From Candidatus Doudnabacteria bacterium RIFCSPHIGHO2_02_FULL_42_25 (lineage in GTDB: Bacteria > Patescibacteriota > Doudnabacteria > UBA920 > O2-02-FULL-48-8): DNA of 64,000 nucleotides. The notes beneath the pieces are model-generated. The model made no database searches. It was not told the DNA's origin and saw nothing but the letters and a program-made list of their open reading frames with translations. Positions 27,954 to 62,793 of the stretch are shown one piece after another. The stretch lies in assembly GCA_001777665.1 (NCBI GenBank), contig MFEQ01000006.1, forward strand, positions 213,442-277,441, read 5' to 3'. Within the stretch, counting starts at the first letter, position 1; each line of letters opens with the position of its first letter. Both the position numbers and the translations under genes were made by a program.

Positions 27954-27970
27954 GGCAGATTTGTCTGTGA

Positions 27971-28704: not shown

Positions 28705-28706
28705 AA

Positions 28707-31118: not shown

Positions 31119-31139
31119 CTCACACCTCCGCGCTTTGCG

Positions 31140-43628: not shown

Positions 43629-44197
43629 CATTGAAGGAAACTAGATCGAACTGATCTGTTCACGGTCACGCCGCGTGCTTCCAAACGTTTCGCCGCTCGT
43701 TTGCTTCCGGTTCGAATCCACAGATCATAGAGTCGTAAAACACTTTGATCTGTTCGATCCGAAGAAAGATCCCGGACCTCACTGATTACGTCAACGAACG
43801 ACACGAACCTCTCGGCCAACTCTTGAAAGACGTCGCCGAGGGTGGGGTCAGCAGACCCTGCCAGTTGGCCGTAGGCTGTTTCGCCGAGCTGAACGTAATA
43901 TTCGGGGCTGACGAGAGATCGCTCTAACGATTCGGAAAAAAATCCCGTAACGAAGAGCGACATGTCGCCGACAAAACGCAGCTCGTGTCTGTGATGAGCG
44001 CCCTCCCCATGGAGAGAGTAGTAAAGTCTCGGCCCCAGGGCATCATCTTGAGTCTCTCTCATCCGGACAAAACCAGTGAGCAGATTGACCACGTAGAACG
44101 ACGTTAGCTCACTTGCCGCGACCTTCTGCTTCGCCATCGCAGATTCCACGAGTTCGCGGAAGTACTCTGTAGGCGACTGAGGACTGAAAGTAGGCAT
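43628..44197 (-). CDS. hypothetical protein (single-gene GC-rich insert)
   Basis: Start placed at the internal Met MPTFSPQ, which has a GGAGGAA RBS. GC-rich codon usage unlike its neighbours. Confidence 0.4.
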   Translation of the reverse strand: MPTFSPQSPTEYFRELVESAMAKQKVAASELTSFYVVNLLTGFVRMRETQDDALGPRLYYSLHGEGAHHRHELRFVGDMSLFVTGFFSESLERSLVSPEYYVQLGETAYGQLAGSADPTLGDVFQELAERFVSFVDVISEVRDLSSDRTDQSVLRLYDLWIRTGSKRAAKRLEARGVTVNRSVRSSFLQ

Positions 44198-44246
44198 CTC
44201 TTCCTCCGCGAAAATGTTATCCCAATTATATGCTAAAAATATGCAC

Positions 44247-44465
44247 TTACAAAATCTCAATCAGCTTATGTGTACTTTTGTGTCCGGAACGGATGCGGAT
44301 TCGCGACGGGGAAGTATTGAAATAATCAGCCAAAATCTCAATCACGGCATCATTGGCTTGATTGTCAGCAGGTATTGCTGTCGTCCAAATCTTGTACTCT
44401 TCTAATCCAGTTTCTTCGATGCGATCGCTGGACGCATGGGTTTGTACTTTGACTCGTATAACCAT
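44247..44465 (-). CDS. DUF167/YggU-family protein
   Basis: IPADNQANDAVIEILADYF...IRSGHKSTHKLIEI matches the YggU pattern. Confidence 0.5.
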   Translation of the reverse strand: MVIRVKVQTHASSDRIEETGLEEYKIWTTAIPADNQANDAVIEILADYFNTSPSRIRIRSGHKSTHKLIEIL

Positions 44466-45339: not shown

Positions 45340-45438
45340 ATTATTCAGAATTAATTAGCTTGGGTTATATTACCAACTTCACTCTTGGTTGTAAATATGT
45401 TATTTTATATCGGTTCAACCCAAACGGAGGGTATACAA

Positions 45439-46398
45439 ATGTCGAGTCTGGAAAGCTTGGTGGTTCATAGGTATGTGGATCGAAATGGGGTTGAGCACGT
45501 ACTCGAGTACGAACCGTTCTCACGCCCACCGGATCCTTTACCGCCACCTCCTATTGTCTTCCGCAAGCTGGAAACGATCGAGATCCCGAAGCCACCAGAG
45601 AAGCAACACCTGTGGCAATGGCCAGATGGGAGTTTCACCTACCAGCACAACGGAGCAGACCGTTACCACTATTACGAGACACTGAAGATTCCCACACCTC
45701 AACCACCTGCTCCACTACCGCAGCAGCAATACGAGTATCTCGAAATCCCTGCACCCAAACCCCCATCCGAAATCGTGCCGCAGAAGCCTGTGTACCTGGA
45801 TGTCGATGTCGGGCCAACGCCAGTGCCTGGGCCACTGCCGGTTCAGCACTACGAATACCTCGAACCACATAAGCTGAAGGCTCCGTTTTTCGACTGGTCG
45901 GTGCTCAGTTCGAGACGGTTGGCACTGGACTACATCCATGAAATACCTAGTAGTTGGATGCCGGAGCGGTGGATTCAACCTCAGCTGTCAGTTGTGGTGG
46001 AGAACAAAACAGTCCATCTCTATGGACACCACGTTACAGTGCAGGCACAGGTAAGTAATCCCGGCGGGCCGATCTTGATTGGAAAAATCAAAATCCATGA
46101 CAGCTCCGCCCGAGCCAAAGAAAAGGTGTCACTTCGGCCCCTGAAGTTCTCCAAATTAGTGTGGGTCAACCCAACCAAGCATGATTACTACCTCGAGGTG
46201 GATGACATGCTGGTTCACATCTATTTGGTTCAGGAACCATACAAGTGCCTGGTGAAGGTCTACGACGCGGACGAAGTGCAAGTACACGAACGTAGTCGGA
46301 CACATTATTTTCCAAGCAAAATCGATCCTCGACCTTTCTCACGCGGCTTGCTGCGCGCCATCCGCAAGATGCGCGAATCTAAGCAGATCCGGCGTTGA
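45439..46398 (+). CDS. proline-rich repeat protein, hypothetical (single-gene GC-rich insert)
   Basis: Strong RBS GGAGGG 8 nt before the ATG. Repeated YEYLEIPAPKPP / YEYLEPHKLKAP units. Plus strand, unlike its neighbours. Confidence 0.45.
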   Translation: MSSLESLVVHRYVDRNGVEHVLEYEPFSRPPDPLPPPPIVFRKLETIEIPKPPEKQHLWQWPDGSFTYQHNGADRYHYYETLKIPTPQPPAPLPQQQYEYLEIPAPKPPSEIVPQKPVYLDVDVGPTPVPGPLPVQHYEYLEPHKLKAPFFDWSVLSSRRLALDYIHEIPSSWMPERWIQPQLSVVVENKTVHLYGHHVTVQAQVSNPGGPILIGKIKIHDSSARAKEKVSLRPLKFSKLVWVNPTKHDYYLEVDDMLVHIYLVQEPYKCLVKVYDADEVQVHERSRTHYFPSKIDPRPFSRGLLRAIRKMRESKQIRR

Positions 46399-47508: not shown

Positions 47509-50271
47509 TTAACATTTGCTCCAACCGCATGATTCGCATTTCTGGCAGCCTTCGGCCATGCGGAGCATGTTGCCGCACATCATACAGACTGGAGCGTGTC
47601 CCAAATCAGCCACTGAAGTTTTAGATTTAACAAACTCCAGCTTACCTGTATTCATTTCTTGGGTCACAGCTTGGAATATTGGTTCCTGAACTAACTTCGG
47701 AGTTTCTACTGGTTGTGGAATTTCCAGCTGCAGGGTTTGTTGGCCGCGCTTGAGGTGATTTTCCAAAACATTGGCGACGGCATCAGGTAAGCTCAAAATT
47801 CTTTCCCCATTGTGGAATACCGGATCTGGTCCTCGGATACCTTTGAGTTGGTCGATGACGTTTTGCAGACTAATTCCAGATCGCAAGGAAAGGGAGATCA
47901 TGCGACAAATGGCTTCAGTTTGAGCCCCGAAAAATCCACCGGCTTTACCGAGTTGTGAAAAGACTTCAAACGGCCCGTATTCGTCTTCATTAACCGTAAC
48001 GTAGAGGTTGCCATAAGCAGTCGCGACTTTGTAAGTCGAGCCTTGCATCACATCTGGGCGTTTGCGTGGAGAGACCTGGGCCAGCCCGCCAACGGCCTGA
48101 GCCGTAGGCGATGGCTGGCGGGTCATTTGTGGTGCTGCTGGAGTTTGTGGATGAGGTGCTGGCGCTGGCATCGGGGCAGGTGTTGGTTCGGGAGTTGGCA
48201 TCGGCGCTGGAGTTGGCTCTGGTGCTGGTTGTGGAATGGTTTGTGCCGAAGGCACTCCGACCGAAGCGTCGGAACGTTTCCCATTCTCCACCTGGTCTGA
48301 CGCATCTTTACCTAATTTCTTATGATCTATCGCAAGAATCTGTTCATCGCGTGATCCATCGCGGTAAATCGTCCCGCCTTTGCAGCCCAGATCATACATC
48401 ATCTCGTATAATTTTTTGGTTTGTTCGACTGTGTAATCTTCTGGGGCGTTGACGGTTTTCGAAATCGCCGAATCAGTCCAACGCTGCACCGCAGCTTGGA
48501 CTTTTACATGTTCTTCCGGAGCGAGCTCCATCGCGGTGACGAAATGTTCTGGTAATTCAGAGCCTGGGTGAGCAGCCAACCAATCTTGAGCGAGTTGGAT
48601 ATGTTCTTGATGGACTCCCAACCTTGATTTGCGGAAATAAGTCCAGGAAAAGAATGGTTCAATTCCAGTCGAAGTCCCGACCATGGTCCCAACAGTACCG
48701 GTTGGGGCTTGGGTCAAAATCGTAACATTGCGAATGCCGTACGATCGGACGAGGTGACGGATATATTCGGGCATGCGTTGCATAAATCCAGATTGAAGAA
48801 ATTTCTCAGCATCAAATTTACTAAACGCACCTTTTTCGCGAGCCAGATCAACGGAAGTTTCGTAAGCGGTGATCGAAATGAAGCGATAGAGTTTGTCGAT
48901 AAATTCCACAGCTGATTCGGAACCATAACGCAATTCCAATTTGATCAACATTTCAGCCAACCCGATCGTTCCCATCCCAACTCGTCGTTCACTCATTTGT
49001 TGCTGATAATTCTCATCAAAGAAATATGGAGTCGAATCGATAACATTGTCCTGGAACCGCACGGCATCCTGGACAGTTCGCTTTAATTTATTCCAATCCA
49101 CGTCTTTTCCGGCAGCTGGCGAATTATCATCCACGTGTTTGGCCAAATTGATGTGACCTAGGTTACAAACTCCCCATGCCGGAAGCGGCTGTTCGCCACA
49201 AGGATTGGTACAAGGCAAGTCCGCGTAATAGTAAGAATTAGAATAATAGTTGGCTCGATCAATGAAATACATGCCAGGTTCAGCGCTACCCCAGGCCGAA
49301 GTAATAATATTGTCCCAAATATCCTGGGCCCGAACTGTTTTGTGCTTGATAACTTTGCCGCCTATTTCTTTCCAGCGGTTGATATTTCCATCCCAAGCTT
49401 CTTTATAAAGCGGATCGGAAGTGTCTGGAAAAACCAAATCCCAACTCTTGTCTTCTTTTACCGCTTGCATGAAGTCATCCGTGATGCCCACTGAAATATT
49501 GGCATTGGTAATTTTACCCGCTTCTTTTTTTGAATTAATAAAATCGATGACATCTGGATGCCAGACATTGAGAATCAACATCAAAGCTCCGCGTCTGGAT
49601 CCGCCCTGTTCGATCAGGCCGGTGACAAATGAATAAAGGGAAGCCCAAGATACAGCACCAGATGACCGGCCATTAACGCCTTTGACATAAGCATAGCGAG
49701 GACGAAGCGTGGAAACGTTAATCCCAACTCCGCCACCGCGAGACATGATCTCGGCCATTTGACCCAAAGTTTCAAAAATTCCACCTCGCGAATCTTTCGG
49801 AGAAGGAATAACGTAGCAGTTATAGTAAGTTAAATGTTGCCCGGTACCAGCACCGGTAAAAATACGGCCAGCTGGAACGTATTTCCAATCATCCATCAAT
49901 TCTCGAAATCTTCCCTGCCATTCCGCTTGCAACTCTGGAGTCGCTTCGACAGAGGCAATATGCTGGGCGATGCGTTCGAACATCTGTTCTGGAACAGTTT
50001 CGAGTGGTTTGTCGATGTGTTCGATAGCGCGGGTTTCGATCGAGCCATCACGAAGCTTGACCGCAACTTGTTTCTCTTCTCGATCAATCCGTTCGACAGT
50101 GCCGATTTCGCGCTGCCCGGTTTTGAGGTTAACGCAAACAACGACTGTGTCGCCTACAGCCAATGTTTCTTTCTTCGCATCTTTAATCGCATATCGATCC
50201 AAAAATATTTTTTCGCCTAGCTCGGCTAGAGAGTTGACCTTTCGTTGTTGGAGATTTTCTTTCTGTTGCAT
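47509..50271 (-). CDS. nrdJ: adenosylcobalamin-dependent (class II) ribonucleotide reductase
   Basis: Active-site region TNPCGEQPLPAWGVCNLGHINL. 920 aa. C-terminal zinc ribbon CMMCGN...CQKCESCGWSKC. Pro/Ala/Thr-rich insertion. Confidence 0.85.
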   Translation of the reverse strand: MQQKENLQQRKVNSLAELGEKIFLDRYAIKDAKKETLAVGDTVVVCVNLKTGQREIGTVERIDREEKQVAVKLRDGSIETRAIEHIDKPLETVPEQMFERIAQHIASVEATPELQAEWQGRFRELMDDWKYVPAGRIFTGAGTGQHLTYYNCYVIPSPKDSRGGIFETLGQMAEIMSRGGGVGINVSTLRPRYAYVKGVNGRSSGAVSWASLYSFVTGLIEQGGSRRGALMLILNVWHPDVIDFINSKKEAGKITNANISVGITDDFMQAVKEDKSWDLVFPDTSDPLYKEAWDGNINRWKEIGGKVIKHKTVRAQDIWDNIITSAWGSAEPGMYFIDRANYYSNSYYYADLPCTNPCGEQPLPAWGVCNLGHINLAKHVDDNSPAAGKDVDWNKLKRTVQDAVRFQDNVIDSTPYFFDENYQQQMSERRVGMGTIGLAEMLIKLELRYGSESAVEFIDKLYRFISITAYETSVDLAREKGAFSKFDAEKFLQSGFMQRMPEYIRHLVRSYGIRNVTILTQAPTGTVGTMVGTSTGIEPFFSWTYFRKSRLGVHQEHIQLAQDWLAAHPGSELPEHFVTAMELAPEEHVKVQAAVQRWTDSAISKTVNAPEDYTVEQTKKLYEMMYDLGCKGGTIYRDGSRDEQILAIDHKKLGKDASDQVENGKRSDASVGVPSAQTIPQPAPEPTPAPMPTPEPTPAPMPAPAPHPQTPAAPQMTRQPSPTAQAVGGLAQVSPRKRPDVMQGSTYKVATAYGNLYVTVNEDEYGPFEVFSQLGKAGGFFGAQTEAICRMISLSLRSGISLQNVIDQLKGIRGPDPVFHNGERILSLPDAVANVLENHLKRGQQTLQLEIPQPVETPKLVQEPIFQAVTQEMNTGKLEFVKSKTSVADLGHAPVCMMCGNMLRMAEGCQKCESCGWSKC

Positions 50272-50329
50272 AAGTTGTTATAGGTCATATAAGTCTTATC
50301 AGACCTATCAGACCTATTAATTATTTTTA

Positions 50330-50773
50330 TTAAAGTTTTTTCGCCTCGCGCACGAATTCTTCGACATCGGCAAATTTTCTGTAAACGGAGGCAAATCGGA
50401 TGTAGGCGACTTGATCTTTGCCTTTGATTCGCTTCATGACGATGTTGCCAATATCTTTCGACATGATTTGGTCTTTACCACTCTTCTGAATATCTTGCTC
50501 GATACCGGTAACTAGGGAGTGGAAGTCGTCACGGGAGAGCGGGCGCTTCTCAAATGCCTTGCGAATCCCAGATTCTATTTTTTCACGCATATAGGGTTGC
50601 GTTCGGCCATCGCGTTTCATCACTGTCAGGTCCAAAATTTCCATTTCTTCGTGGGTGGAGAACCTCGCCCCGCATTTCACACACTCTCGACGCCTTCGAA
50701 TAGCCATCCCGTCGGATATCGGACGCGAGTCGAGAACTTTAGTATCTTCATTAGAGCAATTGGGGCAACGCAT
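50330..50773 (-). CDS. nrdR: transcriptional repressor NrdR
   Basis: MRCPNCSNEDTKVLDSRP...ECVKCGARFSTHE zinc ribbon plus ATP-cone. Confidence 0.9.
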   Translation of the reverse strand: MRCPNCSNEDTKVLDSRPISDGMAIRRRRECVKCGARFSTHEEMEILDLTVMKRDGRTQPYMREKIESGIRKAFEKRPLSRDDFHSLVTGIEQDIQKSGKDQIMSKDIGNIVMKRIKGKDQVAYIRFASVYRKFADVEEFVREAKKL

Positions 50774-52736: not shown

Positions 52737-53891
52737 ATGAAGACTTGTCCTTATTGTGGGAACAACCCCATCCCCCATTTTACTCATAAATTGTATGAAT
52801 CATTCGATATTTTAGTCAGTCCGATTCGCAGATTTGTTTTTCAAACCCGATTCGGGAAACTGACCGACCATTTGGCGACATGGGTTGCGATAGGGTTTTT
52901 CTATCTGCTCAAACCGGTAGGTTTAGTTCAAATCAATCGCGACATCAATAAAATTATATACCCGCGAGCAAAAGTGCTCTGGGAAGAAGCGCAACGTCGA
53001 GGAATAGTTATCGAGGAGATTAAGCTTTTCAACCGCTCCATCGATTTATATCGTGCTTACCTACAGAATAAACCATTCTACTTCATGGGATTACCCAGGA
53101 TGGAAAAAGTTGCGAGTAGTAATTTGACTTGGGTCGATGATAAATATCTGCTCAAGAAAAAATTACTTAAGCATCATCTCCCTGTCGCTCCCGGTGGCTC
53201 GTTTACTTCGCTTAAAAATGCGTTAATGGCGCTTGAGACTCTGGAAAAACCAGTAATAGTCAAACCTCGAGCTGGTTCTAGAGGCCGCCACACCACCACT
53301 TTTGTTTATACGAAAGAAGATTTAATCCAAGCCTTTAAAATCGCGAAACAATTATGCTACTGGGTTATTGTCGAAGAACATTTATTCGGCGATGTCCAGC
53401 GAGGAACAGTGATTGGGGGTAAATTAGTCGGAGTCCTAGGTGGCTCACCTCCTAGAGTTACGGGTGACGGCAAAAGCACTATTGCTGAATTAATCAAAAT
53501 AAAAGATTTGAATCGACCAAGCGGTGTAAAAGAAACGGTAGTTAATCCATATTTCATGGAACGCTTGGGATTAGCCATGCAAACAATATTGCCAGAAGGA
53601 AAAACCGTAGATCTAAATGAGAAGGTGGGTGTGAACTACGGTGGGACTTCTTATGACTGCACTGATGAGACCCATCCTGATACGAAACAGATGTTGGAAG
53701 AAGCTGGAAAAGTTCTCGACTGTTCTATTCTCGGCTTTGATTTCATCGTGCCTGATATTACTAAATCATATAAAGAACAAAAAGCCGGGATTATCGAATG
53801 CAATGGCGCCCCGTTCATTCAACTCCACCACGATCCCCTGATCGGCAATTCCATAAACGCCGCAAAATACGTTTGGGATCTTGTGGAATAA
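52737..53891 (+). CDS. ATP-grasp domain protein (cyanophycin-synthetase N-terminal domain-like)
   Basis: VIVKPRAGSRGRHTT...VIVEEHLFGDVQRGTVIGGKLVGV...VTGDGKSTIAELI...ECNGAPFIQLHHDP pattern of the CphA-type ATP-grasp. Confidence 0.55.
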   Translation: MKTCPYCGNNPIPHFTHKLYESFDILVSPIRRFVFQTRFGKLTDHLATWVAIGFFYLLKPVGLVQINRDINKIIYPRAKVLWEEAQRRGIVIEEIKLFNRSIDLYRAYLQNKPFYFMGLPRMEKVASSNLTWVDDKYLLKKKLLKHHLPVAPGGSFTSLKNALMALETLEKPVIVKPRAGSRGRHTTTFVYTKEDLIQAFKIAKQLCYWVIVEEHLFGDVQRGTVIGGKLVGVLGGSPPRVTGDGKSTIAELIKIKDLNRPSGVKETVVNPYFMERLGLAMQTILPEGKTVDLNEKVGVNYGGTSYDCTDETHPDTKQMLEEAGKVLDCSILGFDFIVPDITKSYKEQKAGIIECNGAPFIQLHHDPLIGNSINAAKYVWDLVE

Positions 53892-53932
53892 AAAAGCGGC
53901 CGAACCCCTAACTCGGGGTCCAACCGCACAAG
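53891..53932. terminator. bidirectional terminator between convergent genes
   Basis: AAAAAA followed by GCGG..CCCC-taactc-GGGG..CCGC and then a T-tract on the opposite strand. Confidence 0.6.
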
Positions 53933-53939
53933 ACTTGTA

Positions 53940-54923
53940 TCAGCTAGCAGCGTAGGCCGGCTGTGTCAGTCGATGTTGAATTTTGCGACACCGACCGATG
54001 CAGTCCTGGAGAAGGTACTCCGGAACAACCCACGACGCCGCCAACTCACGATCTGCCTGTTTCTTTGGATCAAGTTTGCTGATGTCGACAATCTGCCGAC
54101 CAATAGAGGCCTTTTTGCCCGCATCGCGGACCGGCTGCTTGTCGTATCCCACCGGTGATTGCTTTTTCGCCTTCGCCAGTGCGTAGTCCGTCGTATCCCA
54201 GAACCGCGATGAGTCAGGAGTCAAAACTTCGTCGGCCAATACAGCACCGAATTCGAACTTGGTGTCGGCGATGATGATCCCCTGCGGCAAAGCGTACTCA
54301 TAAGCCATCCGATAATCCGCAAGAGACGCTTGCTGGATCCGCTTGAATTCAGTCTGGCCGATCATGGCGATGGCTTCGGCTTCCGAGATGTTTACGTCGT
54401 GACCGTCCTCGGATTTGGTTGACGGAGTAAAAATCGGCTCCGGCAATTTACTCCCATCGTGCAGACCCGCCGGCAACTCGATACCGCAAACGGCACCGGT
54501 TGCTTGATAGTCCTTCCACCCACTACCTGTAAGGTAGCCTCGTACGATCGCCTCGATTTTCCGCATTTCCTGTTTCTGTACCACGATCGCCCGTTGGTGA
54601 AGCTCGGCGTAGTTGCGGATGTGCTTCGGAAGAAACTCGTCGATGTCCTTACCGTGGGCGACCAGGTGGTTCGGCACATTCTTGAACAAGGTCGTGAGCC
54701 AGAAGACCACGAGCTTGGTCAAAACCTCTCCCTTGCCTTCGACTAACGCATCAAGGACGAAGTCGAAGATGCTGATCCGGTCGCTGGCAACAACCAGAAG
54801 ATGATCAGCGCTTCGCAGTTCGAATGTATCGCGCACTTTGCCCTGATGAGCACGGCGCACGCCAGCATGCAGCAGTTCGCGTGTGACTTCAGATTCGCGC
54901 ACGCGCTCTGGGATATACGGCAT
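53940..54923 (-). CDS. purC: phosphoribosylaminoimidazole-succinocarboxamide (SAICAR) synthase
   Basis: LLHAGKVRDTFEL...LVVASDRISIFDFVL pattern. Approx 320-aa long form. Confidence 0.75.
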   Translation of the reverse strand: MPYIPERVRESEVTRELLHAGVRRAHQGKVRDTFELRSADHLLVVASDRISIFDFVLDALVEGKGEVLTKLVVFWLTTLFKNVPNHLVAHGKDIDEFLPKHIRNYAELHQRAIVVQKQEMRKIEAIVRGYLTGSGWKDYQATGAVCGIELPAGLHDGSKLPEPIFTPSTKSEDGHDVNISEAEAIAMIGQTEFKRIQQASLADYRMAYEYALPQGIIIADTKFEFGAVLADEVLTPDSSRFWDTTDYALAKAKKQSPVGYDKQPVRDAGKKASIGRQIVDISKLDPKKQADRELAASWVVPEYLLQDCIGRCRKIQHRLTQPAYAAS

Positions 54924-55062
54924 CGCTAACTCCCCCTTGAAAGGGCCGGCAATGCCGGCGGAAATTTTTAAGTAACGTGTAACCTATATTACTCCTTTGC
55001 CCTTTTTTTGGCAATAAAAAAAGGTTAGCCGACCCGATGGGTCAACTAACCATAATCTCCCG

Positions 55063-56496
55063 CTAGACCGAAAGTTGGACTCGCTCTGAGTCTGCATCTT
55101 TCGGAAACTGTGCCAAGAGTTCCTCGGTAGCGCGGGCGAACTCTTCCGCCTGTTGTGGAGCAGCACCCACAAACTTCTGTGGATCGAGAATGTCATCGAG
55201 TTGATCGACTATCGGAGCGAAATACTTATCCGCCCGAATCCGACCAATCAAATCGATGCTCTCGCCTTCTCGTTGCCGAAGCAGCTCGGCGTGAGCATGC
55301 TGTCGCAGACGTTCATGAGCCTCTTGGCGGTCAGCGCCGGCCTGGAACATCCGCTCCATGATCAAAGCACTTGCCAAGAAAGGCAGCTCCGCCTTGAGGT
55401 TGCGCTCGATGACCTTGGGGTAGACCCGCAGATCCTGGAAGACATTGATCATGATTCGTGTGATCGAATCGGCCAGAAGGAACGACTCCGGGAGATATCG
55501 CCGCCGGCCTGCACTGTCGTCCAGAGTTCTTTCGAACAACTGCAAGGCCTGCGTGTTGAGGGCACTCGGAACCGCCCCCATGAGTTCACGAGCCAAACTA
55601 CATGCTCGTTCTGAACGCATCGGATTTCGCTTGTGAGGCATCCGGCTTGAGCCGACTTGCCCTTCCTCGAAGGGCTCTTCCATCTCGCCGAGTTCCTGGA
55701 GCTCTCGGATGTCAAACGCGATTTTGTGAATACTGGCGGCCATGCTGGCCAGAACGGACAAAACCTTCGTGTCGATCTTCCGCATGTAAGTCTGTCCAGT
55801 GATGGACAGAATGGTCTTGAAACCGAACTTTGCGGCGACATGATTTTCCATTCCCAAAACCGAGTCCCGATCTTTGACGAGTTCCAGAAGACTCGCCTGG
55901 GTGCCGGTCGCGTCTTTCAGACCGCGAAAAGGCAACCAGCTAATCAGATCTCGGACCTCCTCCAAGTCCATCATGATTTCCGTTGCCCACATCGCTGCCC
56001 GCTTACCCACTGTTGTCGGCTGTGCAGTCATCAAATGCGTCCGTCCGAGAGTTGCCAGGTTGGGATAGCGCTTGATGAACTCGTTGATCGCCGTCAGCAG
56101 GTTGGACAATCTGCGTCGAACAATCAGAAGCGAATCGCGGATTTGAATCAGTTCCGCGTTGTCCGTGATATCGCAGCTAGTACACCCGAGGTGAATAATC
56201 GGAGCGGCACTGGGAGCCACTAATCCGAAAGCCTTGTTGTGCGACACCACGTCATGCTTGAGTTTTCTCTCAAACTCAATGACCCTGTCGTAATTGATGT
56301 CGTCGACGTGGGCCTCCATCTCTGCGATCTGTTCACGACTGATGTTGGGTACTCGCCATCGGTATTGCGCTTTGGCAACCGCGACCCATATCCGTCGCCA
56401 CAGTCCGTACTTCGTGTCATCCGACCAGACTCTCTGCATCTCGACCGATGAGTAACGGCCACACAACGGCGACTCGTACAAATCGTGTTTTGCCAT
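55063..56496 (-). CDS. purB: adenylosuccinate lyase
   Basis: Fumarase/ASL signature GSSRMPHKRNPMRSE. 477 aa. Confidence 0.9.
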   Translation of the reverse strand: MAKHDLYESPLCGRYSSVEMQRVWSDDTKYGLWRRIWVAVAKAQYRWRVPNISREQIAEMEAHVDDINYDRVIEFERKLKHDVVSHNKAFGLVAPSAAPIIHLGCTSCDITDNAELIQIRDSLLIVRRRLSNLLTAINEFIKRYPNLATLGRTHLMTAQPTTVGKRAAMWATEIMMDLEEVRDLISWLPFRGLKDATGTQASLLELVKDRDSVLGMENHVAAKFGFKTILSITGQTYMRKIDTKVLSVLASMAASIHKIAFDIRELQELGEMEEPFEEGQVGSSRMPHKRNPMRSERACSLARELMGAVPSALNTQALQLFERTLDDSAGRRRYLPESFLLADSITRIMINVFQDLRVYPKVIERNLKAELPFLASALIMERMFQAGADRQEAHERLRQHAHAELLRQREGESIDLIGRIRADKYFAPIVDQLDDILDPQKFVGAAPQQAEEFARATEELLAQFPKDADSERVQLSV

Positions 56497-56611
56497 CTGT
56501 TTTCCTCCGATTTAAACTTTCGTGTACGTTGTCGATGTTGTATAAAAAAATCAAACTCGACACTATAGAATACCAAAGAATACAATTCTTGCAAAATAAC
56601 TAAAAAGCTGT

Positions 56612-56651
56612 TTGTCGCAAAAACAATGTAATTACATTAAAATTGCGACAA
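56612..56651. repeat. 40-bp nested palindrome TTGTCGCAAAAACAATGTAATTACATTAAAATTGCGACAA (downstream flank of PaaX_C-like paralog 3)
   Basis: Outer arms TTGTCGCAA/TTGCGACAA. Inner AATGTAATTACATT perfect palindrome. Shares the TGTAATTACA core with the 24.2-kb paralog flanks. Confidence 0.8.
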
Positions 56652-56668
56652 ACTTAAATTTAAACAAT

Positions 56669-57346
56669 TTAAATTAACTCTGCTGCTTTGAAAAATTTTG
56701 TTAATTTTTCTTCGTCGTCCGGATTTAATTTAGATATTTCCATCACGGTCACAAACTGCTCTATTCCATAATACACCGATATAAACTCAACTTGATCAAT
56801 TGGGTTATATGGATAAACCCAAACAGTTCTTTGCAGCGGATAAAAATTCATCGTTTGAAGTTTTTCCCGAAACAAATCCGCGTGATGCCGATACTCTTTC
56901 GATGGAATATCAGCCAAAACAACCCACCAATGCTTGCGCCACCGACTGTCGCGTGGGATTTCTAAATAATCAAAATTCATTCGCCAAATTTTTTCTTGCC
57001 CTTTTTTCGTTACAGTCATGACGTATTCATCTCCTTCTTTCATCAACTGAACGTAACCATAACGTTTAAGATAATAAAAAGATCTAACTAAAACCTTTTG
57101 ACGTTTCTGAAACCGTTCCTTTCGATCAATCCCATGGTAGGAATATTTTGCAATTTTACCTATGGCATTCAATAAATTTGGCGCGATAGCAGCTATGGTA
57201 ACAACTCCAGCAACTGCTGCCAAAGCCAAAATGGCTTCCCCTGCTGTTTTCAATACCGCAATTTGTTTGTCATTCAGAGTAGGTTTTTTGGATACAGTGC
57301 TATTTTTTATAACAGCCGCAAAAGCAATTTGGTCTTTTATCCTCAT
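56669..57346 (-). CDS. membrane-anchored PaaX_C/Cas2-fold domain protein (paralog 3 of 3)
   Basis: 60% identical to 24255..24932. AT-rich codon usage inside a GC-rich block. Confidence 0.5.
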   Translation of the reverse strand: MRIKDQIAFAAVIKNSTVSKKPTLNDKQIAVLKTAGEAILALAAVAGVVTIAAIAPNLLNAIGKIAKYSYHGIDRKERFQKRQKVLVRSFYYLKRYGYVQLMKEGDEYVMTVTKKGQEKIWRMNFDYLEIPRDSRWRKHWWVVLADIPSKEYRHHADLFREKLQTMNFYPLQRTVWVYPYNPIDQVEFISVYYGIEQFVTVMEISKLNPDDEEKLTKFFKAAELI

Positions 57347-57372
57347 AAATCAATCATATCAATTATTTACCT

Positions 57373-57411
57373 TTGTCGCAAAAATGATGTAATTACATTG
57401 TTTTTGCGACT
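57373..57411. repeat. approx 40-bp palindrome TTTGTCGCAAAAATGATGTAATTACATTGTTTTTGCGAC (upstream flank of paralog 3)
   Basis: Near-copy of 56612..56651 with the same orientation. Confidence 0.8.
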
Positions 57412-57420
57412 AATTTAAAA

Positions 57421-57462
57421 TAAAAAAAGACGGGGGCACGCACATGGTGCGCACCACCGTCG
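57421..57462 (-). terminator. GC-hairpin terminator after pyrC
   Basis: A7 run plus GACGGGGGCACGCACATGGTGCGCACCACCGTC on plus = hairpin plus T7 on minus. Confidence 0.6.
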
Positions 57463-57476
57463 TTGAAAATGTGAGG

Positions 57477-58511
57477 CTAAACAAAAGCCGCAGGCCACCA
57501 CTGGATCTTTTCACCAGCCATGTATGGCCGACAGCCGCCGATATCCATCGGTACGACCCATGGCTCTGTAACCAAAATGAGCTTTTCCGTATTGCGTGGC
57601 ACTTGGTAGAAGTCCGCCCCGTTCGCCCACATGAACCGCGAAAGTTCCTCAGTGCCCAGTCCGTTTTCCAGAAAGATCCGGGTCCATTCGGGCACCACGA
57701 CAGGAAGACTGAACACCCCTGAACGGATCTTGTTTGAACCCTTGAATTCGACCTCGTGAGGAGCAAAGTCGCTCCCGTGGATAACGTTCGGCAGTTGATC
57801 TACCAGGACCAGTTCCTGAATTGCTCGCTGATGCCGGAAGCCCTGGATTGGTGGCTTGCAAATCAGATGTGGGTCAGTCTCACCACCCATGACGTCGTTT
57901 CTGTTGTGCTTGAAATGGTGGAGTGTTACGGTCGCAGCAACACGCCGACGTTGGGTATGCATCTTTCGGATGAAGTCAACCGTTTCCGCGCGGCTGATGT
58001 GCTCGATGACGATACGTAGCCGCGGAAAATCCTTCACGGCTTGTTCGATCTCGAGGAGGCACACCACTTCGCGCATGTACATGTCGACGCTGAGGTCAGC
58101 AGATTCCATGTGGACGTCGAGCTGCATGTCCAGATCCTGCATAACCTCGAGGTGTGCGTACAGACGCTTCAACCCGATGATGCCGTCCTTCGAGCCAGTA
58201 GTGATCCCGAGATAAAGCTTCAAGACCCTATAACCCGCAAGGTGGAAAGCATGGATCATCCCCACCGGAGTATCTGGCGTCAGCTTCGGTGCAACGATTG
58301 TCGTGGTACCGAGCGGCTTCAGTGCTGCGTCACACTCGTCCTGGTACTCATCGGCTCTCTCGGGTGTCTCAATTGCTGGAACATTGCCCATAGCAACGAC
58401 GCGTTTGAATTGTCGAGCAACCCATTCGGCCATGGCTACCAAGATTGCTCCGAATCGTAAATGCCCGTGCCAATCATCCGGCGCTGGCATCTTAATCTCG
58501 CGACGCGACAT
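57477..58511 (-). CDS. pyrC: dihydroorotase (homodimeric class II type)
   Basis: PDDWHGHLR N-terminal motif and overall colinearity with E. coli PyrC (VMPNxxP, HxE..., FxGTDSAPH-like GSDFAPH). Confidence 0.85.
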   Translation of the reverse strand: MSRREIKMPAPDDWHGHLRFGAILVAMAEWVARQFKRVVAMGNVPAIETPERADEYQDECDAALKPLGTTTIVAPKLTPDTPVGMIHAFHLAGYRVLKLYLGITTGSKDGIIGLKRLYAHLEVMQDLDMQLDVHMESADLSVDMYMREVVCLLEIEQAVKDFPRLRIVIEHISRAETVDFIRKMHTQRRRVAATVTLHHFKHNRNDVMGGETDPHLICKPPIQGFRHQRAIQELVLVDQLPNVIHGSDFAPHEVEFKGSNKIRSGVFSLPVVVPEWTRIFLENGLGTEELSRFMWANGADFYQVPRNTEKLILVTEPWVVPMDIGGCRPYMAGEKIQWWPAAFV

Positions 58512-58598
58512 AATCTGCCTCTCTTCCTCTGTTATTCCTCTTTGCCCGAGTTAAAGAACTTCATAGCAGTATAAGCAAAAAAACTTTTATTGCCAAAT

Positions 58599-58636
58599 TA
58601 AAAAAAGCGGTGGAGCGTCGCAGGGACGCACCACCG
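58599..58636 (-). terminator. GC-hairpin terminator
   Basis: A7 plus CGGTGGAGCGTCGCAGGGACGCACCACCG. Confidence 0.6.
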
Positions 58637-58648
58637 TTTGGTTGTCGG

Positions 58649-60085
58649 CTAGAAGCCGCAGTATTCCAGCCGTGTCCCCAAGTACTCGGGAACAAGTTCG
58701 GCGGGAATGCCGAGTTCGAGAGAAAGCGTATCGAGCGCCAGACGCGGCATGATGCTTGATGTCTGGACGTACTCGCGTCGGCCACGGCGCACTTCTTCGC
58801 CGCGTTTGACCATGCCGACGACGAAGGTATCGGCAAGTTCCTCGATGTGCTCGCCGACCTGCCTGCTCAGGCTCAAGTGCGGATTCCAGAAGCAGCCGAT
58901 GTGTCCGCCCGGGTAAGACAGTTCGTCTTGCGGCAGGTTGTAGATATCCTTGTTCCTCGCGATCTGGACGTAGCGATAACCGCCGGGTCGCAGCGTGAAG
59001 TCCCACGCTCCAACGCCGCTCATGAACTGACAGAGACGGGTGGGGTTGTCTGGCCACCACTTCCGAAACGCTGCTTCGAGCATGTTGTAGTAGCTGATGC
59101 GACGATTGATTCCCGGTTTACCTTCCAGCGTACCAGTGATGAAGTGGAGAATGTGCTTGCGCAACGCCGGCAACGATTCCGGCGTCCAGCAGAGAGGGTC
59201 GGTACCGAACGACTGGGCTGGGAAAGCGTTAACGAGGCACCCAGGAACACACTCCTGAAGAGTGTCGAGGATGTCCTGTAGATGGTCGATGTTTCCCTTG
59301 TGCGTCACGACGTTGAAAAGATGCTTCACCGGCACCTTCATCTCTCGGAGGAGTTGGGATGCGTAGAGCGCTTCGTAGGCCTTTTGTCGCTGGCCATGAA
59401 GTTTGGGGATCTCTCTCCACCCCGCCTTGAGCTCGTCGAGGCTCATTCCAGAGAGACGCTTGATCTCGTCTGGATGCACATCGTCGAAGCTCATTGCCAG
59501 AATTTGCGGCGGGTCAGCCGCGATATCCTCGGCAAACTGTCGATCGATCATGAAGCGTCGACCCGGTGTCGTCAGATTGACGATGAGCCCGGCCGCCTTG
59601 GAGTCGCTGATGATGCCCGGACAATCGCGCAGCATCTCCGGCGATCCCCCGAAGCGGTTGCATTCGACCTTCATGTCCGGATGAGTGAGCTGGCTCTTGA
59701 TCGCCGCGGCCCACGCTGGAGGAACTTGGAACTCCTCGACGTACTTGTCGTAGTGGTCCACGAAAAACATGTCGCGCGCTACATACTGTGCCGCCGCGGC
59801 GTTCTTCGTCCACCCAACGATAGCTTCCCGCGGAGCAAACCCCTTCGCGCCTTTAGCGAAGATGAATGATGATTCACAGGTGTAGCCGCCGCCGGTCGAT
59901 TCGCCGTCAACCTCGGTCACGCAGGTATGATTACAGAGGCTATGATTGACATAACCTCCTCCCAGAACCGGCTGCCAGGTAACGCAATCATCCGGCTGGA
60001 GCCCCGCGAAGACGTTCGGGTTGATCATCCCAGTGCGAAGTAGGAATTCTCTTTCCGGGCCCGCCGAAACATTCGTAGAACTCAT
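58649..60085 (-). CDS. hypothetical protein (478 aa), Cys-containing, GC-rich block
   Basis: Long ORF with protein-like composition. I recognise no confident family. Confidence 0.4.
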   Translation of the reverse strand: MSSTNVSAGPEREFLLRTGMINPNVFAGLQPDDCVTWQPVLGGGYVNHSLCNHTCVTEVDGESTGGGYTCESSFIFAKGAKGFAPREAIVGWTKNAAAAQYVARDMFFVDHYDKYVEEFQVPPAWAAAIKSQLTHPDMKVECNRFGGSPEMLRDCPGIISDSKAAGLIVNLTTPGRRFMIDRQFAEDIAADPPQILAMSFDDVHPDEIKRLSGMSLDELKAGWREIPKLHGQRQKAYEALYASQLLREMKVPVKHLFNVVTHKGNIDHLQDILDTLQECVPGCLVNAFPAQSFGTDPLCWTPESLPALRKHILHFITGTLEGKPGINRRISYYNMLEAAFRKWWPDNPTRLCQFMSGVGAWDFTLRPGGYRYVQIARNKDIYNLPQDELSYPGGHIGCFWNPHLSLSRQVGEHIEELADTFVVGMVKRGEEVRRGRREYVQTSSIMPRLALDTLSLELGIPAELVPEYLGTRLEYCGF

Positions 60086-60171
60086 TGCCTCCGTCCTATT
60101 CTAAAGGTGCCATCAGCACCTTCTGTTTGGAATTCGTGGTAAGTGCTTTAGAGTACTATAGATGAATTCAA

Positions 60172-60203
60172 TAAATAAAAAAAGGGTGGTCCGAGGGGAC
60201 CAC
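60172..60203 (-). terminator. GC-hairpin terminator after upp
   Basis: A-run plus GGTGGTCC-gagg-GGACCACC. Confidence 0.6.
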
Positions 60204-60208
60204 CAGGT

Positions 60209-60871
60209 TTAGGCTGCAGCGCCGGTGCCGTTGAACCGATCGCCGTAATCGCCAAGTCCAGGAACGATGTACTTCTGATCGTTGAGCTCGGCATCGATCG
60301 CGAGGGTGACGATCTTGATCTGCGGCGTGTATTCGCAAACCTTGTTCAAACCCTCTTGTGAAGCGATGACGTTGGCAAAGAAAAAGTGCTCCGCTCCCGC
60401 CCCTTTGAGCTGATCGATCGCGTCGCAAACGCTCCCGCCAGTCGCCAGCATGGGATCCAGGAGGATTATAGTTTTCCCTCCGACAATCTGCGGCAGATCC
60501 TTCGGGTAGTACCGCTCGGGGAGCGCCGTCGATTCGTCGCGCCTGATACCGATGTGATAGATCTGAGCTCTCGGAAGCAGCAACCGAAACGGATCGAGCA
60601 GAGCCATCCCAGCGCGCAAAATCGGGACTAGAATGACTCGGTCGTCTAGAAGGATCCTGCCATCGGCAGTCCCCAGGGGGGTCACGACCTTGGTTGGTGA
60701 AGCTCTCACTTGAGACGTGACCTCGAGCGCGAGAATCAACGCCGCCAAGTTATTAGCTCTGACGAATTCGGTTCGCGATGAAGTAACGTCTCGAAGTATG
60801 GTCAGTGCAGCCTGGGCAACCGGATGAGTCAAAAGCTGGACGTTCTGTGAGACCTGCATCAAATCCTCCAT
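60209..60871 (-). CDS. upp: uracil phosphoribosyltransferase (start assigned to internal Met; ORF extends to 60967)
   Basis: VILVPILRAGMALLD, LLDPMLATGGS and YIVPGLGDYGDR motifs. Confidence 0.8.
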   Translation of the reverse strand: MEDLMQVSQNVQLLTHPVAQAALTILRDVTSSRTEFVRANNLAALILALEVTSQVRASPTKVVTPLGTADGRILLDDRVILVPILRAGMALLDPFRLLLPRAQIYHIGIRRDESTALPERYYPKDLPQIVGGKTIILLDPMLATGGSVCDAIDQLKGAGAEHFFFANVIASQEGLNKVCEYTPQIKIVTLAIDAELNDQKYIVPGLGDYGDRFNGTGAAA

Positions 60872-61038
60872 AAAGTCAGGCACGGCCCCTCCCAGGAATC
60901 GTGTGACCCTATAGTCTACCAAAGCAAGGCATTTTGAAGCAAATAAAAAAGACGCTTGCTTGCGCAAACGTCACGGTCGCTTGGCGTTGATCATTACGTC
61001 GGTCGCCTTACTGGACATACGGTCGACTCAATGCCGTG

Positions 61039-61527
61039 CTAGAAGCCAGTTTTGACCACACCTCTCACTTCGTCGACTGAAACGAGATAGGTGCCGGTAC
61101 TGTCAGCGAAGTGCAGGAACCAGTTGTCGCCCAAATCGGGATAGCCGAGATCCGTTCCCAGGCTGAATCCGTTGAGATAGGTACCGACGAGGCGTTCGGT
61201 TTCAAGCCTTCGCAGTCTCGTCGCGGCCTCGACCGAGCCTGACTTGTGAATCGCGATTGCCCTAGTGGTCTCGTCCTGTTCCATCACCCGTGGGTACCCA
61301 TAGTCGGACTCGTAGGCGCCCTTAGCAACAACGTGTGCTGAGAACCCATGCATGTCATCATCCGAAGCGTGCATCTGAGTGTTGGCGTCTTGAGCAATCG
61401 TTCGCTCTATCGTCAAATCACGACTTGTAGACCGCTGAAGGTCCAGAAGGTGCCGAAGTGTCGCCTTAAAAATGCGACCCTGTGGCCATTCTTGCGTTCG
61501 CCGTTGTACACGAGTTATCATCATCAT
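61039..61527 (-). CDS. hypothetical protein (GC-rich block)
   Basis: 162-aa ORF with no recognised domain. Confidence 0.35.
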   Translation of the reverse strand: MMMITRVQRRTQEWPQGRIFKATLRHLLDLQRSTSRDLTIERTIAQDANTQMHASDDDMHGFSAHVVAKGAYESDYGYPRVMEQDETTRAIAIHKSGSVEAATRLRRLETERLVGTYLNGFSLGTDLGYPDLGDNWFLHFADSTGTYLVSVDEVRGVVKTGF

Positions 61528-61569
61528 TCCTCCATGAGCGCCTTGCGGCTGTTGTAAGGAAAATTATAA

Positions 61570-61596
61570 CACAAAAAGACCCCGCTTTTGCGGGGC
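61570..61596 (-). terminator. rho-independent terminator downstream of ftsZ
   Basis: CCCCGC-tttt-GCGGGG followed on the minus strand by TCTTTTTGTGTT. Confidence 0.65.
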
Positions 61597-61629: not shown

Positions 61630-62793
61630 CTATTTAATCTTCTTTCTTATAAATGCGGGAATTTCGAGTTCGTCTTGTTCTGGCGAAATTTCCAGTTCTT
61701 CTTCGATTGATGGTTTCGGGGAAAAAGTTGTTTTCTTCACTTCCACTGGCGCTGGTCCGCCAGCTGGCGGATGCGCTTGGACTGGTTTTGGTTCTTCTCG
61801 TTTCATCATGGGTTCAGGCCTGCGTAAGTTTTCATCAAACCCTGTAGCCACCACTGTAATTTTAACTTCTTCATCCATGTCTTCATCGATCACTGCCCCA
61901 AAAATAATTTTCGCATCTGGGTCTACAGATTTGGTGATAAGCTTAGCTGCTTCTTCGACTTCGTACATCCCGAGATCTTTGCTACCTGTGATGTTAAACA
62001 GCACGCCACGTGCTCCATCAATCGCCATATCGAGAAGTGGGGAATCGATAGCAGCTCTCGCAGCATCGACAGCTCGATTTTCACCAGTACCACGACCAAT
62101 ACCCATCAGAGCTGAGCCGGAATTTTGCATCACAGCTTTCACATCAGCAAAGTCGACATTGATCATGCCAGGTGTAGTAATTAAATCTGAAATTCCCGCG
62201 ACACCTTGGCGCAGGACATCATCCACTGTGCGGAAAGCATCGAGTAGTGAAGTTTTCTTATCTATAATTTGTAAAATTCGATCATTCGGGATCACTATAA
62301 TAGTGTCGACGTGTTGTTTGAGCAATTCCAAACCTTTGTCAGCCAGTTCTCGGCGCTTGGCACCTTCGAAGGCAAATGGCCTGGTCACGACGCCGACTGT
62401 CAGGATGCCGGTTTTCTTAGCAAGTTCAGCGACTACTGGAGCAGCCCCAGTTCCAGTTCCGCCTCCCATGCCGCAAGTAATAAAGACCATGTCAGCATTA
62501 TGGATGACATCTAGAATTTCTTGTTTGGATTCCTCTGCTGCGGCTCGTCCAATTTCCGGATTCATCCCAGCGCCAAGGCCTCGGGTCAAAGTTTTGCCGA
62601 TGTGGACTTTCTGATCAGCTTCGGAATTATGAAGAGCCTGAGCATCGGTATTGATGGCCACAAATTCTACACCTTTGATTCCAGTTTCCATCATCCGATG
62701 GATGGCATTGTGTCCGGAACCACCGACTCCGATAACTTTAATTCGAGCAAAAGTTTCTATTTTAGGCTTTACTTCATTTGATTTAAATCTCAT
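61630..62793 (-). CDS. ftsZ: cell division protein FtsZ
   Basis: [13 protein letters not shown] and [14 protein letters not shown] tubulin motifs. Confidence 0.95.

Follow-up and report, generated by a model that had tools for sequence, protein, structure and literature searches.

A block of approximately 7.7 kb within a 64,000-nucleotide stretch of the small genome of the groundwater organism Candidatus Doudnabacteria bacterium RIFCSPHIGHO2_02_FULL_42_25 (contig MFEQ01000006.1, positions 213,442 to 277,441; the whole stretch is referred to below as the window) is probably a laterally exchanged genomic island, which occupies a lineage-variable slot for nucleotide-metabolism genes between ftsZ and the ATP-grasp gene/nrdR-ribonucleotide reductase (RNR) neighbourhood of one Doudnabacteria clade. 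Six minus-strand genes lie in GC-rich DNA, namely purC, purB, a gene for a dihydroorotase (DHOase) homologue (pyrC-like), a gene for a 478-aa protein of the radical S-adenosylmethionine (SAM) type (rSAM), upp and an ORFan (hyp162), whilst a seventh gene, PaaX_M-3, lies in an AT-rich dip. The window version (upp, rSAM, DHOase-like, purB, purC and one ORFan) would have been imported after the split from the sampled sisters, either piecewise or as a cassette, from source DNA of ~55-58% GC. At this site, purB at least would have taken the place of a resident gene of another type. The island genes are independent transcription units, each with a terminator, and a palindrome-flanked, AT-rich, regulator-like PaaX_M cassette was inserted later. 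Laterally exchanged, compositionally foreign islands are a known kind of feature in genomes of the candidate phyla radiation (CPR), and a preliminary description of this DNA had already proposed an acquired nucleotide-metabolism island. Beyond that description, it was found that the island is a remodelled version of a conserved slot, that GC-richness recurs in this slot without a traceable donor, and that rSAM and upp are its most widely shared pair.

The island was clearly delimited by composition. The window had a mean GC content of 43.2% and was mosaic, with most 1-kb intervals at 0.34-0.47 and those at 54-56 kb and 58-61 kb at 0.54-0.58. At a resolution of 200 nt, the GC content was 0.54-0.60 between ~53,850 and ~61,550, with sharp steps at both ends, and dipped to 0.27-0.41 at 56,500-57,450, around the PaaX_M gene. 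The six GC-rich genes had GC contents of 54-58%, which together with the sharp edges bears out the block of ~55-58% GC first described, and GC contents at third codon positions (GC3) of 0.60-0.71; the flanking ATP-grasp, ftsZ and ftsA genes had GC3 values of 0.41, 0.38 and 0.42, respectively. The GC3 ranges were disjoint, the island minimum being 0.601 versus a maximum of 0.577 among the 39 other genes of the window, which spanned 0.28-0.58 (Mann-Whitney p = 5e-5). Codon preference was inverted in the island relative to host genes (AAG 0.71 versus 0.24, ATC 0.70 versus 0.28, TTC 0.72 versus 0.28), and amino acid usage was of a GC-rich type (arginine 7.2 versus 4.1%, lysine 4.4 versus 6.9%, asparagine 2.5 versus 5.3%). 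With GC contents of 61.1/40.5/65.1% at first, second and third codon positions, the island equalled the Lawrence-Ochman expectation for a genome of ~56% GC, with no sign of amelioration. Strand or expression effects, the former named by the preliminary description as part of a competing explanation, did not account for the GC contrast, since ftsZ, ftsA, GroEL and the embedded PaaX_M gene share the strand of the island and have GC3 values of 0.33-0.42. Every island gene ended in a hairpin and T-run, as had been described for each of the six, and intergenic gaps were 100-170 bp.

Abrupt GC steps at intergenic points, along with a related contig (L012) bearing an implausible taxon label, might be produced by a chimeric metagenome-assembled genome in which DNA of a GC-rich organism was joined to a Doudnabacteria scaffold. 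Such an artefact, the probability of which is practically nil, was excluded because the 10-kb region, junctions included, was 99.9-100% identical in six independent assemblies (NCBI, ENA, JGI) on contigs of 17-355 kb, several of them >340 kb, with the protein listed in 34 index blocks. Moreover, the block contains an AT-rich cassette of host type, and other species carry equivalent GC-rich islands within the same flanks. Exact protein matches of the window were present on contig MFFA01000003.1 of GCA_001780055.1 (Candidatus Doudnabacteria bacterium RIFCSPLOWO2_02_FULL). An apparent loss of upp in GCA_001777775.1 (L006) was traced to a run of Ns, and hence to an assembly gap, not a deletion.

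Relatives of the locus were located through proteins homologous to the 478-aa protein and to the product of the flanking ATP-grasp gene. Whilst the slot of the window reads hyp162-upp-rSAM-pyrC-like-(PaaX_M)-purB-purC, that of L008 (GCA_034680565.1) reads upp-rSAM-pyrC-like-purB-purC-ORFan, that of L007 (Doudnabacteria GCA_019659005.1) upp-ORFan-rSAM-methyltransferase-ORFan-purC-ORFan, and that of the P0124 contig upp-rSAM-PaaX_M followed by three ORFans. The slot of L067 held a purB fragment, purC, two ORFans, pyrF, pyrE, pyrC-like and pyrD, and that of L013 (Doudnabacteria RIFCSPHIGHO2_12_FULL_48_16, MFEY01) only a gene for a pyrE-like phosphoribosyltransferase and pyrF. L012 (DATJFX010000059.1), in which zwf follows the ATP-grasp gene, was the sole relative seen without nucleotide genes in the slot. 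This contig is labelled Candidatus Methylomirabilota and is probably mis-binned; its RNR, NrdR, ATP-grasp and histidyl-tRNA synthetase (HisRS) proteins were 58-87% identical to, and syntenic with, those of the window.

Inspection of the flanks in related genomes, a comparison envisaged in the preliminary description, revealed conserved surroundings (81-92%, ATP-grasp 68-78%) and a slot content that differed per lineage. Flank protein identities were 86-87.5% for FtsA, 81-87% for FtsZ (87% to L008, 81% to L013), 87-92.5% for NrdR, 81-88% for RNR and 68-78% for the ATP-grasp protein (L007, L008, L012 and L013). Within the slot, where the products of purC, upp, pyrC-like and rSAM were compared by pairwise identity, the values were 63-70% for rSAM, 40-44% for upp (L008 and L007), 39-54% for purC (L008, L007 and L067), 27-56% for pyrC-like and 24% for purB. 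Amongst the island genes only rSAM could be aligned at the DNA level, the flank DNA being 75-77% identical, and the small ORFans of different islands were mutually unrelated.

The sharpest discontinuity was that of purB. The PurB of the window belongs to the eukaryote-type long subfamily, its best PDB match being human ADSL (441-443 bits, versus 138-164 bits for the Bacillus/Thermotoga type), and the PurB of L008, encoded at the corresponding place in a matching gene order, is of the Bacillus/Thermotoga type and only 24% identical to it. On these sequence affinities the two genes belong unambiguously to different ancient subfamilies and represent a xenologous displacement. In situ xenologous gene displacement is a known concept in comparative genomics, and the likeness lies in the retention of position, gene order and flanks while purB belongs to a distant subfamily; the island differs in that its genes are separate units with their own terminators, that several members are affected and that the whole segment is foreign. 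Because the flanks are conserved, the content differs, purB is of different types and the ORFans are unrelated, the slot between ftsZ and nrdR is an old nucleotide-metabolism neighbourhood beside nrdR-RNR, the content of which has turned over, including by non-orthologous displacement. The acquired island of the preliminary description was thus upheld in its foreign composition, variable slot and purB xenology, but not as a one-off insertion into a naive site.

GC-rich islands were also found in L008 and L007, with GC3 values of 0.55-0.89 versus 0.33-0.53 in the flanks, and the ORFans within islands were GC-rich as well (hyp162 0.60, h204 of L008 0.89, h171 of L007 0.79). Lone GC-rich genes occurred at unrelated loci, namely the rSAM gene of L010 (GC3 0.72 versus 0.30-0.39) and the purB gene of L051 (0.74 versus 0.36-0.44). 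The rSAM gene of L009 was host-like in composition, as were pyrC-like and pyrD of L067 (GC3 0.46). In L013 the native genes had GC3 values of 0.59-0.71, and its FtsZ, RNR and NrdR genes, at 0.66-0.71, were at the level of the island. Since unrelated ORFans are GC-rich and the embedded PaaX_M gene is AT-rich, composition follows the DNA segment and not gene function or position, and a foreign origin is therefore favoured over a local or function-specific force. 'Nucleotide-sparing' selection for A/U-poor transcripts was set aside, as the unrelated island ORFans and an ORFan patch at 28-32 kb were equally GC-rich.

Alternatively, an ancestral cluster may have been kept GC-rich and fast-evolving by a local force, either GC-biased gene conversion at a hot spot or selection on transcripts, with no foreign origin. 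Nucleotide genes were indeed present in the slot of every relative examined but L012, the order upp-rSAM-pyrC-purB-purC was common to the window and L008, and GC enrichment was seen in the window, L007, L008, L013 and partly L067, with flank DNA saturated at 75-77%; in addition, ComEC is encoded in the window, making DNA uptake and recombination plausible, and a donor was not found. We consider this alternative unlikely, if not negligibly so. The purB genes of the window and L008, being of different ancient subfamilies, cannot be diverged orthologues, and composition moves with genes elsewhere, as in the GC-rich singletons of L010 and L051 and in L011, where island genes lie inside a ribosomal-protein operon. 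Furthermore, an AT-rich PaaX_M cassette lies inside the block, unrelated island ORFans are equally GC-rich, amino acid usage is shifted too, and pyrC-like and pyrD of L067, in the same slot, have a host-like GC3.

Several results nonetheless weigh against a laterally exchanged island. The gene order shared between the window and L008 is accompanied by uneven divergence (70% to 24%), and therefore requires either gene-by-gene displacement or an old operon in an unsampled pool. GC-rich versions occur in three diverged lineages despite saturated synonymous sites in the flanks, and a local GC-maintaining force would explain this recurrence equally well. Searches of libraries of 5.8e9 and 1.84e9 proteins retrieved best outside matches of 51-61% identity, and the donor lineages that the preliminary description expected to be identifiable could not be named (purB 58-61%, purC 50-54%, pyrC-like 51%, or 56% in L067). 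Viral relatives were absent from IMG/VR for rSAM (by alignment), purB and purC, and plasmid relatives of rSAM were absent from PLSDB by tblastn. The island edges showed neither an integrase-like Pfam match nor flanking repeats at 53.9 or 61.55 kb, and no tRNA lay within 29 kb, the Rfam scan returning two distant tRNAs only.

As regards the direction and source of transfer, we infer that GC-richer relatives in a thinly sampled CPR/Doudnabacteria gene pool, and not a distant phylum, would be the likeliest source, because the GC-richer Doudnabacteria genome L013 matches the island in composition. The rSAM family is nearly confined to Doudnabacteria-type contigs. Amongst the best outside matches, only L067 was in a recognisable Doudnabacteria ftsA-ftsZ...nrdR-RNR context (purC 54%, pyrC-like 56%), a synteny also seen around the rSAM homologues of L007, L008 and the P0124 contig; both L051 (purB 61%) and L068 (pyrC-like 51%) were short contigs.

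A donor outside the CPR, for instance the GC-rich host of this presumed episymbiont, is implied by the suggestion in the preliminary description that the organism had patched its nucleotide metabolism, and appears improbable. A GC content of 55-58% is typical of many groundwater phyla, PurB was 47-51% identical to proteins of Planctomycetota, Gemmatimonadota and vertebrates, about as to those of other CPR bacteria, and distant (30%) rSAM homologues were found in Actinomycetota (Glycomyces) and on a contig of 66% GC. However, matches outside the CPR reached at most ~52% for purB and ~54% for purC, pyrC-like was at most 39% identical to ordinary DHOases, Doudnabacteria-type synteny surrounds the purC and pyrC-like homologues of L067 as well as the rSAM homologues of L007, L008 and P0124, and the only taxon named in the close rSAM subfamily is Doudnabacteria.

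Exchange within the CPR would accord with what is known of related genomes. In Patescibacteria, genomic islands are reported to make up as much as 13% of the length of the genome, and in groundwater Patescibacteria most of the individual gene transfers detected were between Patescibacteria, some of them involving nucleotide metabolism ('Genetic exchange shapes ultra-small Patescibacteria metabolic capacities', PMC12455944). The present island is similar in being a compositionally deviant block with nucleotide genes in a reduced genome, but differs in lacking mobility genes or a donor, in being GC-richer than its host, and in lying in a slot that holds nucleotide genes in the relatives seen, except L012.

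The product of PaaX_M-3, located in the AT-rich dip, matched PaaX_M, the Cas2-like central domain, and not PaaX_C as first described, whereas the bounds then given for the cassette (56612..57411) are close to those set by its palindromes (56611-57413). PaaX_M-3 was 65% identical to PaaX_M-1 (24255-24932), both being 225 aa in length. The palindrome GTCGYAAAAAnnnTGTAATTACAnnnTTTTTRCGAC had seven matches (0 expected), all beside these two genes, and brackets both upstream and downstream (24,220-24,970 for PaaX_M-1 and 56,611-57,413 for PaaX_M-3); the palindromes TGTAATTACA are those bracketing PaaX_M-3. In L008 a 100-bp spacer without the cassette separates pyrC-like from purB. The absence from L008, the AT-rich composition and the bracketing palindromes together support a later insertion of the cassette into the island, as the preliminary description had also supposed for this AT-rich segment between purB and pyrC. 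The PaaX_M-1 and PaaX_M-3 units may be small mobile cassettes carrying a regulator or, alternatively, units that regulate themselves through an operator at each end, and PaaX_M-3 may regulate purB-purC, given that purB directly follows its downstream palindrome. A third PaaX_M gene (39491-40042), 34% identical, lacked the palindrome, and PaaX_M genes were also present in or near the slot in other relatives (the P0124 contig and L054).

The gene list of the preliminary description was sustained for purC, purB and upp, the products of which scored above equivalog cut-offs (Table 1), but pyrC is represented only by a divergent homologue below the cut-off. For Upp, which passed NF001097, the score against TIGR01091 (199.7 bits) was slightly under the cut-off of 208; public gene calls give the protein a length of ~216-224 aa, and the mechanical open reading frame (ORF) extends to 60967. 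The closest non-self PurC homologues were 50-54% identical, and among 5.8e9 proteins PurB had three matches at 58-61% (on short contigs), followed by ~51% (Andersenbacteria, Komeilibacteria) and 47-50% in many phyla and vertebrates. The pyrC-like protein failed the TIGR00856 cut-off (205.6 versus 292.95 bits), the copies of L008 and L011 scoring 166.6 and 338, respectively. Its PDB matches were dihydroorotases throughout, with full-length alignments (E = 6.5e-47), and the metal-ligand pattern HxH...K...H...H...D was recognised in its translation as WHGHLR, VLKLY, VHMES, IEHIS and GSDFAPH (by eye, against the E. coli pattern). Among 1.84e9 representative proteins its relatives were 51% and 46% identical, with all others at most 39%, and the L067 copy was 56% identical. 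No match to hyp162 was obtained in Pfam, NCBIfam and PADLOC scans, and a relative was absent from every fetched locus.

Beyond these family assignments, the island may serve to supply nucleotide monophosphates beside NrdR/RNR to an otherwise salvage-dependent organism. Upp would convert uracil and phosphoribosyl pyrophosphate to uridine monophosphate (UMP). PurC and PurB would carry out two aspartate-dependent steps, from carboxyaminoimidazole ribonucleotide through succinylaminoimidazole carboxamide ribonucleotide (SAICAR) to aminoimidazole carboxamide ribonucleotide, with PurB also converting adenylosuccinate to adenosine monophosphate, and the DHOase-like and radical-SAM enzymes would process a pyrimidine precursor at a stage preceding Upp. 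For the partial pur set, the preliminary description had suggested a use in salvage or an AMP cycle; PurC is not a salvage enzyme. The PurC and PurB steps of de novo purine synthesis are matched by two island proteins above their NCBIfam equivalog cut-offs; the differences are that none of the other pur genes (purF, D, N, L, M, E/K, H) was present within the 64-kb window and that the island PurB is of the eukaryote-like long type. With the canonical UMP pathway (pyrC-pyrD-pyrE-pyrF), the island shares a DHOase homologue of a divergent lineage that is found beside pyrD/pyrE in L067 and L068, and an end product, UMP, that is the product of Upp. It differs in that the window slot lacks pyrD, pyrE and pyrF, having a radical-SAM enzyme and Upp instead, and in that its DHOase is below the family cut-off.

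The 478-aa protein, previously listed as hypothetical, is indeed encoded by a GC-rich gene of the block, but can now be assigned, from its sequence and modelled fold, as a divergent radical-SAM enzyme. It had no Pfam match; PF04055 was matched only in the distant homologues P0141 and P0142. The family comprises ~26 proteins, and its close subfamily has no Pfam model. The cysteines of C51-x3-C55-x14-C70, a spacing other than CX3CX2C, were, like H53, invariant in the 24 aligned sequences, which also show an FGGSPE motif. The AlphaFold model of the protein (predicted local distance difference test score, pLDDT, 91.9) had the partial TIM-barrel of the radical-SAM fold, and was structurally nearest to the decarboxylase BlsE (PDB 7VOB). 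From BlsE, the cytosylglucuronate decarboxylase of blasticidin S synthesis, the island protein differs by an identity of only 12-13%, by CX3CX14C versus CX3CX2C and by a length greater by ~150 residues.

The rSAM gene was the best conserved member of the island. It adjoined or nearly adjoined upp in six contexts (the window, L007, L008, L011, L055 and the P0124 contig) and a DHOase homologue gene in three (the window, L008 and L011); upp without the DHOase gene accompanied it in L007, L055 and the P0124 contig, and it was found without these partners in L009 and L010. In L011 (JGI 3300082192, 7,590-11,455), a pyrC-ORF-upp / rSAM module, inserted between rpsJ and rplC, interrupts the S10 ribosomal-protein operon, which is elsewhere universally conserved, with an AT-rich NgoPII-type restriction-modification system (GC3 ~0.2) a few kb away. 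Members of the close subfamily (48-82% identity) carried Doudnabacteria as their sole taxon name, and several of the longer contigs had ftsA-ftsZ...nrdR synteny or small-genome housekeeping contexts.

The distant homologues, both in Glycomyces and on the 66% GC contig, lie in clusters resembling those for nucleoside natural products, the genes of which encode a DHOase-like amidohydrolase, a ligase resembling aminoacyl-tRNA synthetases (aaRS), a NUDIX enzyme and adenosine deaminase. In Glycomyces buryatensis (L049, STGY01000069.1, 2,238-12,648), two paralogues of the rSAM family share one cluster with genes for a DHOase-like amidohydrolase, an aaRS class II-like ligase, a DegT aminotransferase, an epimerase, NUDIX, adenosine deaminase and a methyltransferase; its make-up resembles that of a nucleoside natural-product gene cluster, one as yet uncharacterised. 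The AT-rich contigs L057, L059 and L060 also carry the rSAM-ligase pair. Because of its upp/DHOase neighbours and the nucleoside-like clusters of the distant homologues, the substrate of the island enzyme is most likely of a pyrimidine or nucleoside type.

A more specific proposal is that the radical-SAM enzyme and Upp form an oxygen- and quinone-independent, non-orthologous replacement for PyrD, PyrE and PyrF. In this route the DHOase-like enzyme would yield dihydroorotate, the radical-SAM enzyme would abstract the hydrogen at C5 and expel the C6 carboxylate, producing uracil by a HemN- or BlsE-like oxidative decarboxylation, and Upp would turn uracil into UMP; in a variant, the substrate would be orotate rather than dihydroorotate. 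The proposal derives from three observations. Firstly, upp-rSAM(-pyrC) fills the slot that holds pyrF-pyrE-pyrC-pyrD in L067 and a pyrE-like gene with pyrF in L013. Secondly, the rSAM-upp pairing recurs in six contexts, and thirdly, the nearest structural analogue is a radical decarboxylase acting on a pyrimidine carboxylate. The close pyrC-like relatives of L067 (56%) and of L068 (51%), the latter on a separate contig with the order pyrD-pyrC-pyrE, adjoin pyrD and pyrE, plus pyrF in L067, and the window copy adjoins rSAM and upp. The proposal is rated as doubtful because rSAM also occurs alone (L009, L010) and with upp minus the DHOase gene (L007, L055, P0124 contig). In literature searches, nothing relevant was retrieved on CPR adenylosuccinate lyase or on a conversion of dihydroorotate or orotate to uracil by a radical-SAM enzyme.

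The variable, compositionally foreign and ORFan-rich nature of the locus would also be expected of an anti-phage defence island, in which the radical-SAM enzyme, as a prokaryotic viperin with Upp as its nucleotide-supplying partner, would form a chain-terminating nucleotide. This reading is highly improbable. PADLOC, including its pVip models, gave no match for rSAM, pyrC-like, purB, purC or hyp162 and matched upp/PaaX_M only at E = 0.002-0.006 to unrelated models, viperin was not the best structural match, the partners (DHOase, PurC, PurB) are biosynthetic, and relatives hold pyrD/E/F in the same slot.

Table 1. Features of the island and its flanks, with coordinates in the window
Feature	Position	Strand	GC/GC3	Details
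Class II RNR (47509-50271) and NrdR (50330-50773)	47509..50773	-		conserved nucleotide-metabolism anchor of the neighbourhood
ATP-grasp (cyanophycin-synthetase-like)	52737..53891	+		conserved host flank
Left island edge	53896..53927			hairpin with T/A runs on both sides, a bidirectional terminator between convergent ATP-grasp (+) and purC (-); GC step ~53,850
purC, SAICAR synthase, 327 aa	53940..54923	-	0.553/0.643	NF010568 300.6 bits (cut-off 251); PF01259
Terminator-like hairpin 3' of purB	55023..55051	-		13 pairs + T7
purB, adenylosuccinate lyase, 477 aa	55063..56496	-	0.547/0.640	TIGR00928 372.5 bits (cut-off 326.2)
Palindromic repeat GTCGCAAAAAnnnTGTAATTACAnnnTTTTGCGAC	56611..56653	.		downstream end of PaaX_M cassette, upstream of purB
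PaaX_M-3, 225 aa	56669..57346	-	0.372/0.327	AT-rich; PF20803, Cas2-like PaaX central domain
Palindromic repeat, second copy	57372..57413	.		upstream end of PaaX_M cassette
Terminator-like hairpin 3' of pyrC-like	57435..57455	-
pyrC-like, type II dihydroorotase homologue, 344 aa (337 aa from alternative start)	57477..58511	-	0.547/0.632
Terminator 3' of radical-SAM gene	58599..58636	-		dG -27.7 kcal/mol, z = -3.5
Predicted divergent radical-SAM enzyme, 478 aa	58649..60085	-	0.580/0.706	C51-x3-C55-x14-C70, FGGSPE motif; highest GC/GC3 of the island genes
Terminator-like hairpin 3' of upp	60185..60204	-
upp, uracil phosphoribosyltransferase	60209..60871	-	0.551/0.636	NF001097 201.1 bits (cut-off 114); PF14681
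Terminator-like hairpin 3' of hyp162	60951..60972	-
hyp162, 162-aa ORFan	61039..61527	-	0.544/0.601
ftsZ terminator, right island edge	61579..61596	-		GC step ~61,550
ftsZ	61630..62793	-		conserved host flank; TIGR00065 448.7 bits

Other parts of the window were also of note. The wider gene content, including ComEC, LTD, NusB, GroEL, class II RNR with NrdR, FtsA/FtsZ and several PaaX_M genes, is typical for a CPR bacterium. A second GC-rich patch (53-55% GC; ORF GC3 0.66-0.71) was located at 27,900-32,300, between rpmF/nusB and groEL, and consists of approximately ten tightly packed minus-strand ORFans of 60-204 aa, identical in independent assemblies and without a match in Pfam and PHROG scans; it looks like another foreign insertion. 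Two isolated GC-rich genes (43,628-44,260 and 45,385-46,398; GC3 0.55 and 0.58), with no Pfam match, are surrounded by AT-richer genes related to cobalamin (CobA/CobO-like, DUF4430), in the interval from hisS to the B12-dependent RNR gene.

The genome encodes two HisRS-like proteins. One, of 406 aa (42,340-43,560), was only 22% identical to a second type of 426 aa and 56-58% identical to its counterparts in L012 and L013. The 426-aa type lies just past the right end of the window (L001, 228-1,508), upstream of rpsU-yqeY-ftsA, and in the same place in L008. On the minus strand at 2,065-8,885 are encoded a histidine kinase, a nitroreductase-like protein, another 478-aa protein, without matches, a ThiF/E1-like protein and an aromatic amino-acid ammonia-lyase (PF00221, E = 1e-156), and the nitroreductase/478-aa/ThiF trio resembles azoline-forming peptide-modification clusters. 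Very large ORFs of 2189 aa (10,233-16,802) and 1190 aa (18,537-22,109) were also present, the latter having no Pfam match and an unusually high GC content at second codon positions (0.51).

CPR bacteria are believed to lack de novo nucleotide synthesis, and the question of where their nucleotides come from is central to explaining why they depend on hosts. In one Doudnabacteria clade, a slot adjoining nrdR-RNR is dedicated to nucleotide genes, which have been swapped repeatedly, non-orthologous versions included, and metabolic capacity in reduced genomes is therefore fluid and not simply lost. The locus also draws attention to an uncharacterised radical-SAM family with a CX3CX14C motif, linked to uracil phosphoribosyltransferase and dihydroorotase. 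Should this enzyme prove to be pyrimidine-forming, it would constitute a new route to UMP, and the scoring of pathway completeness in uncultured bacteria would change.

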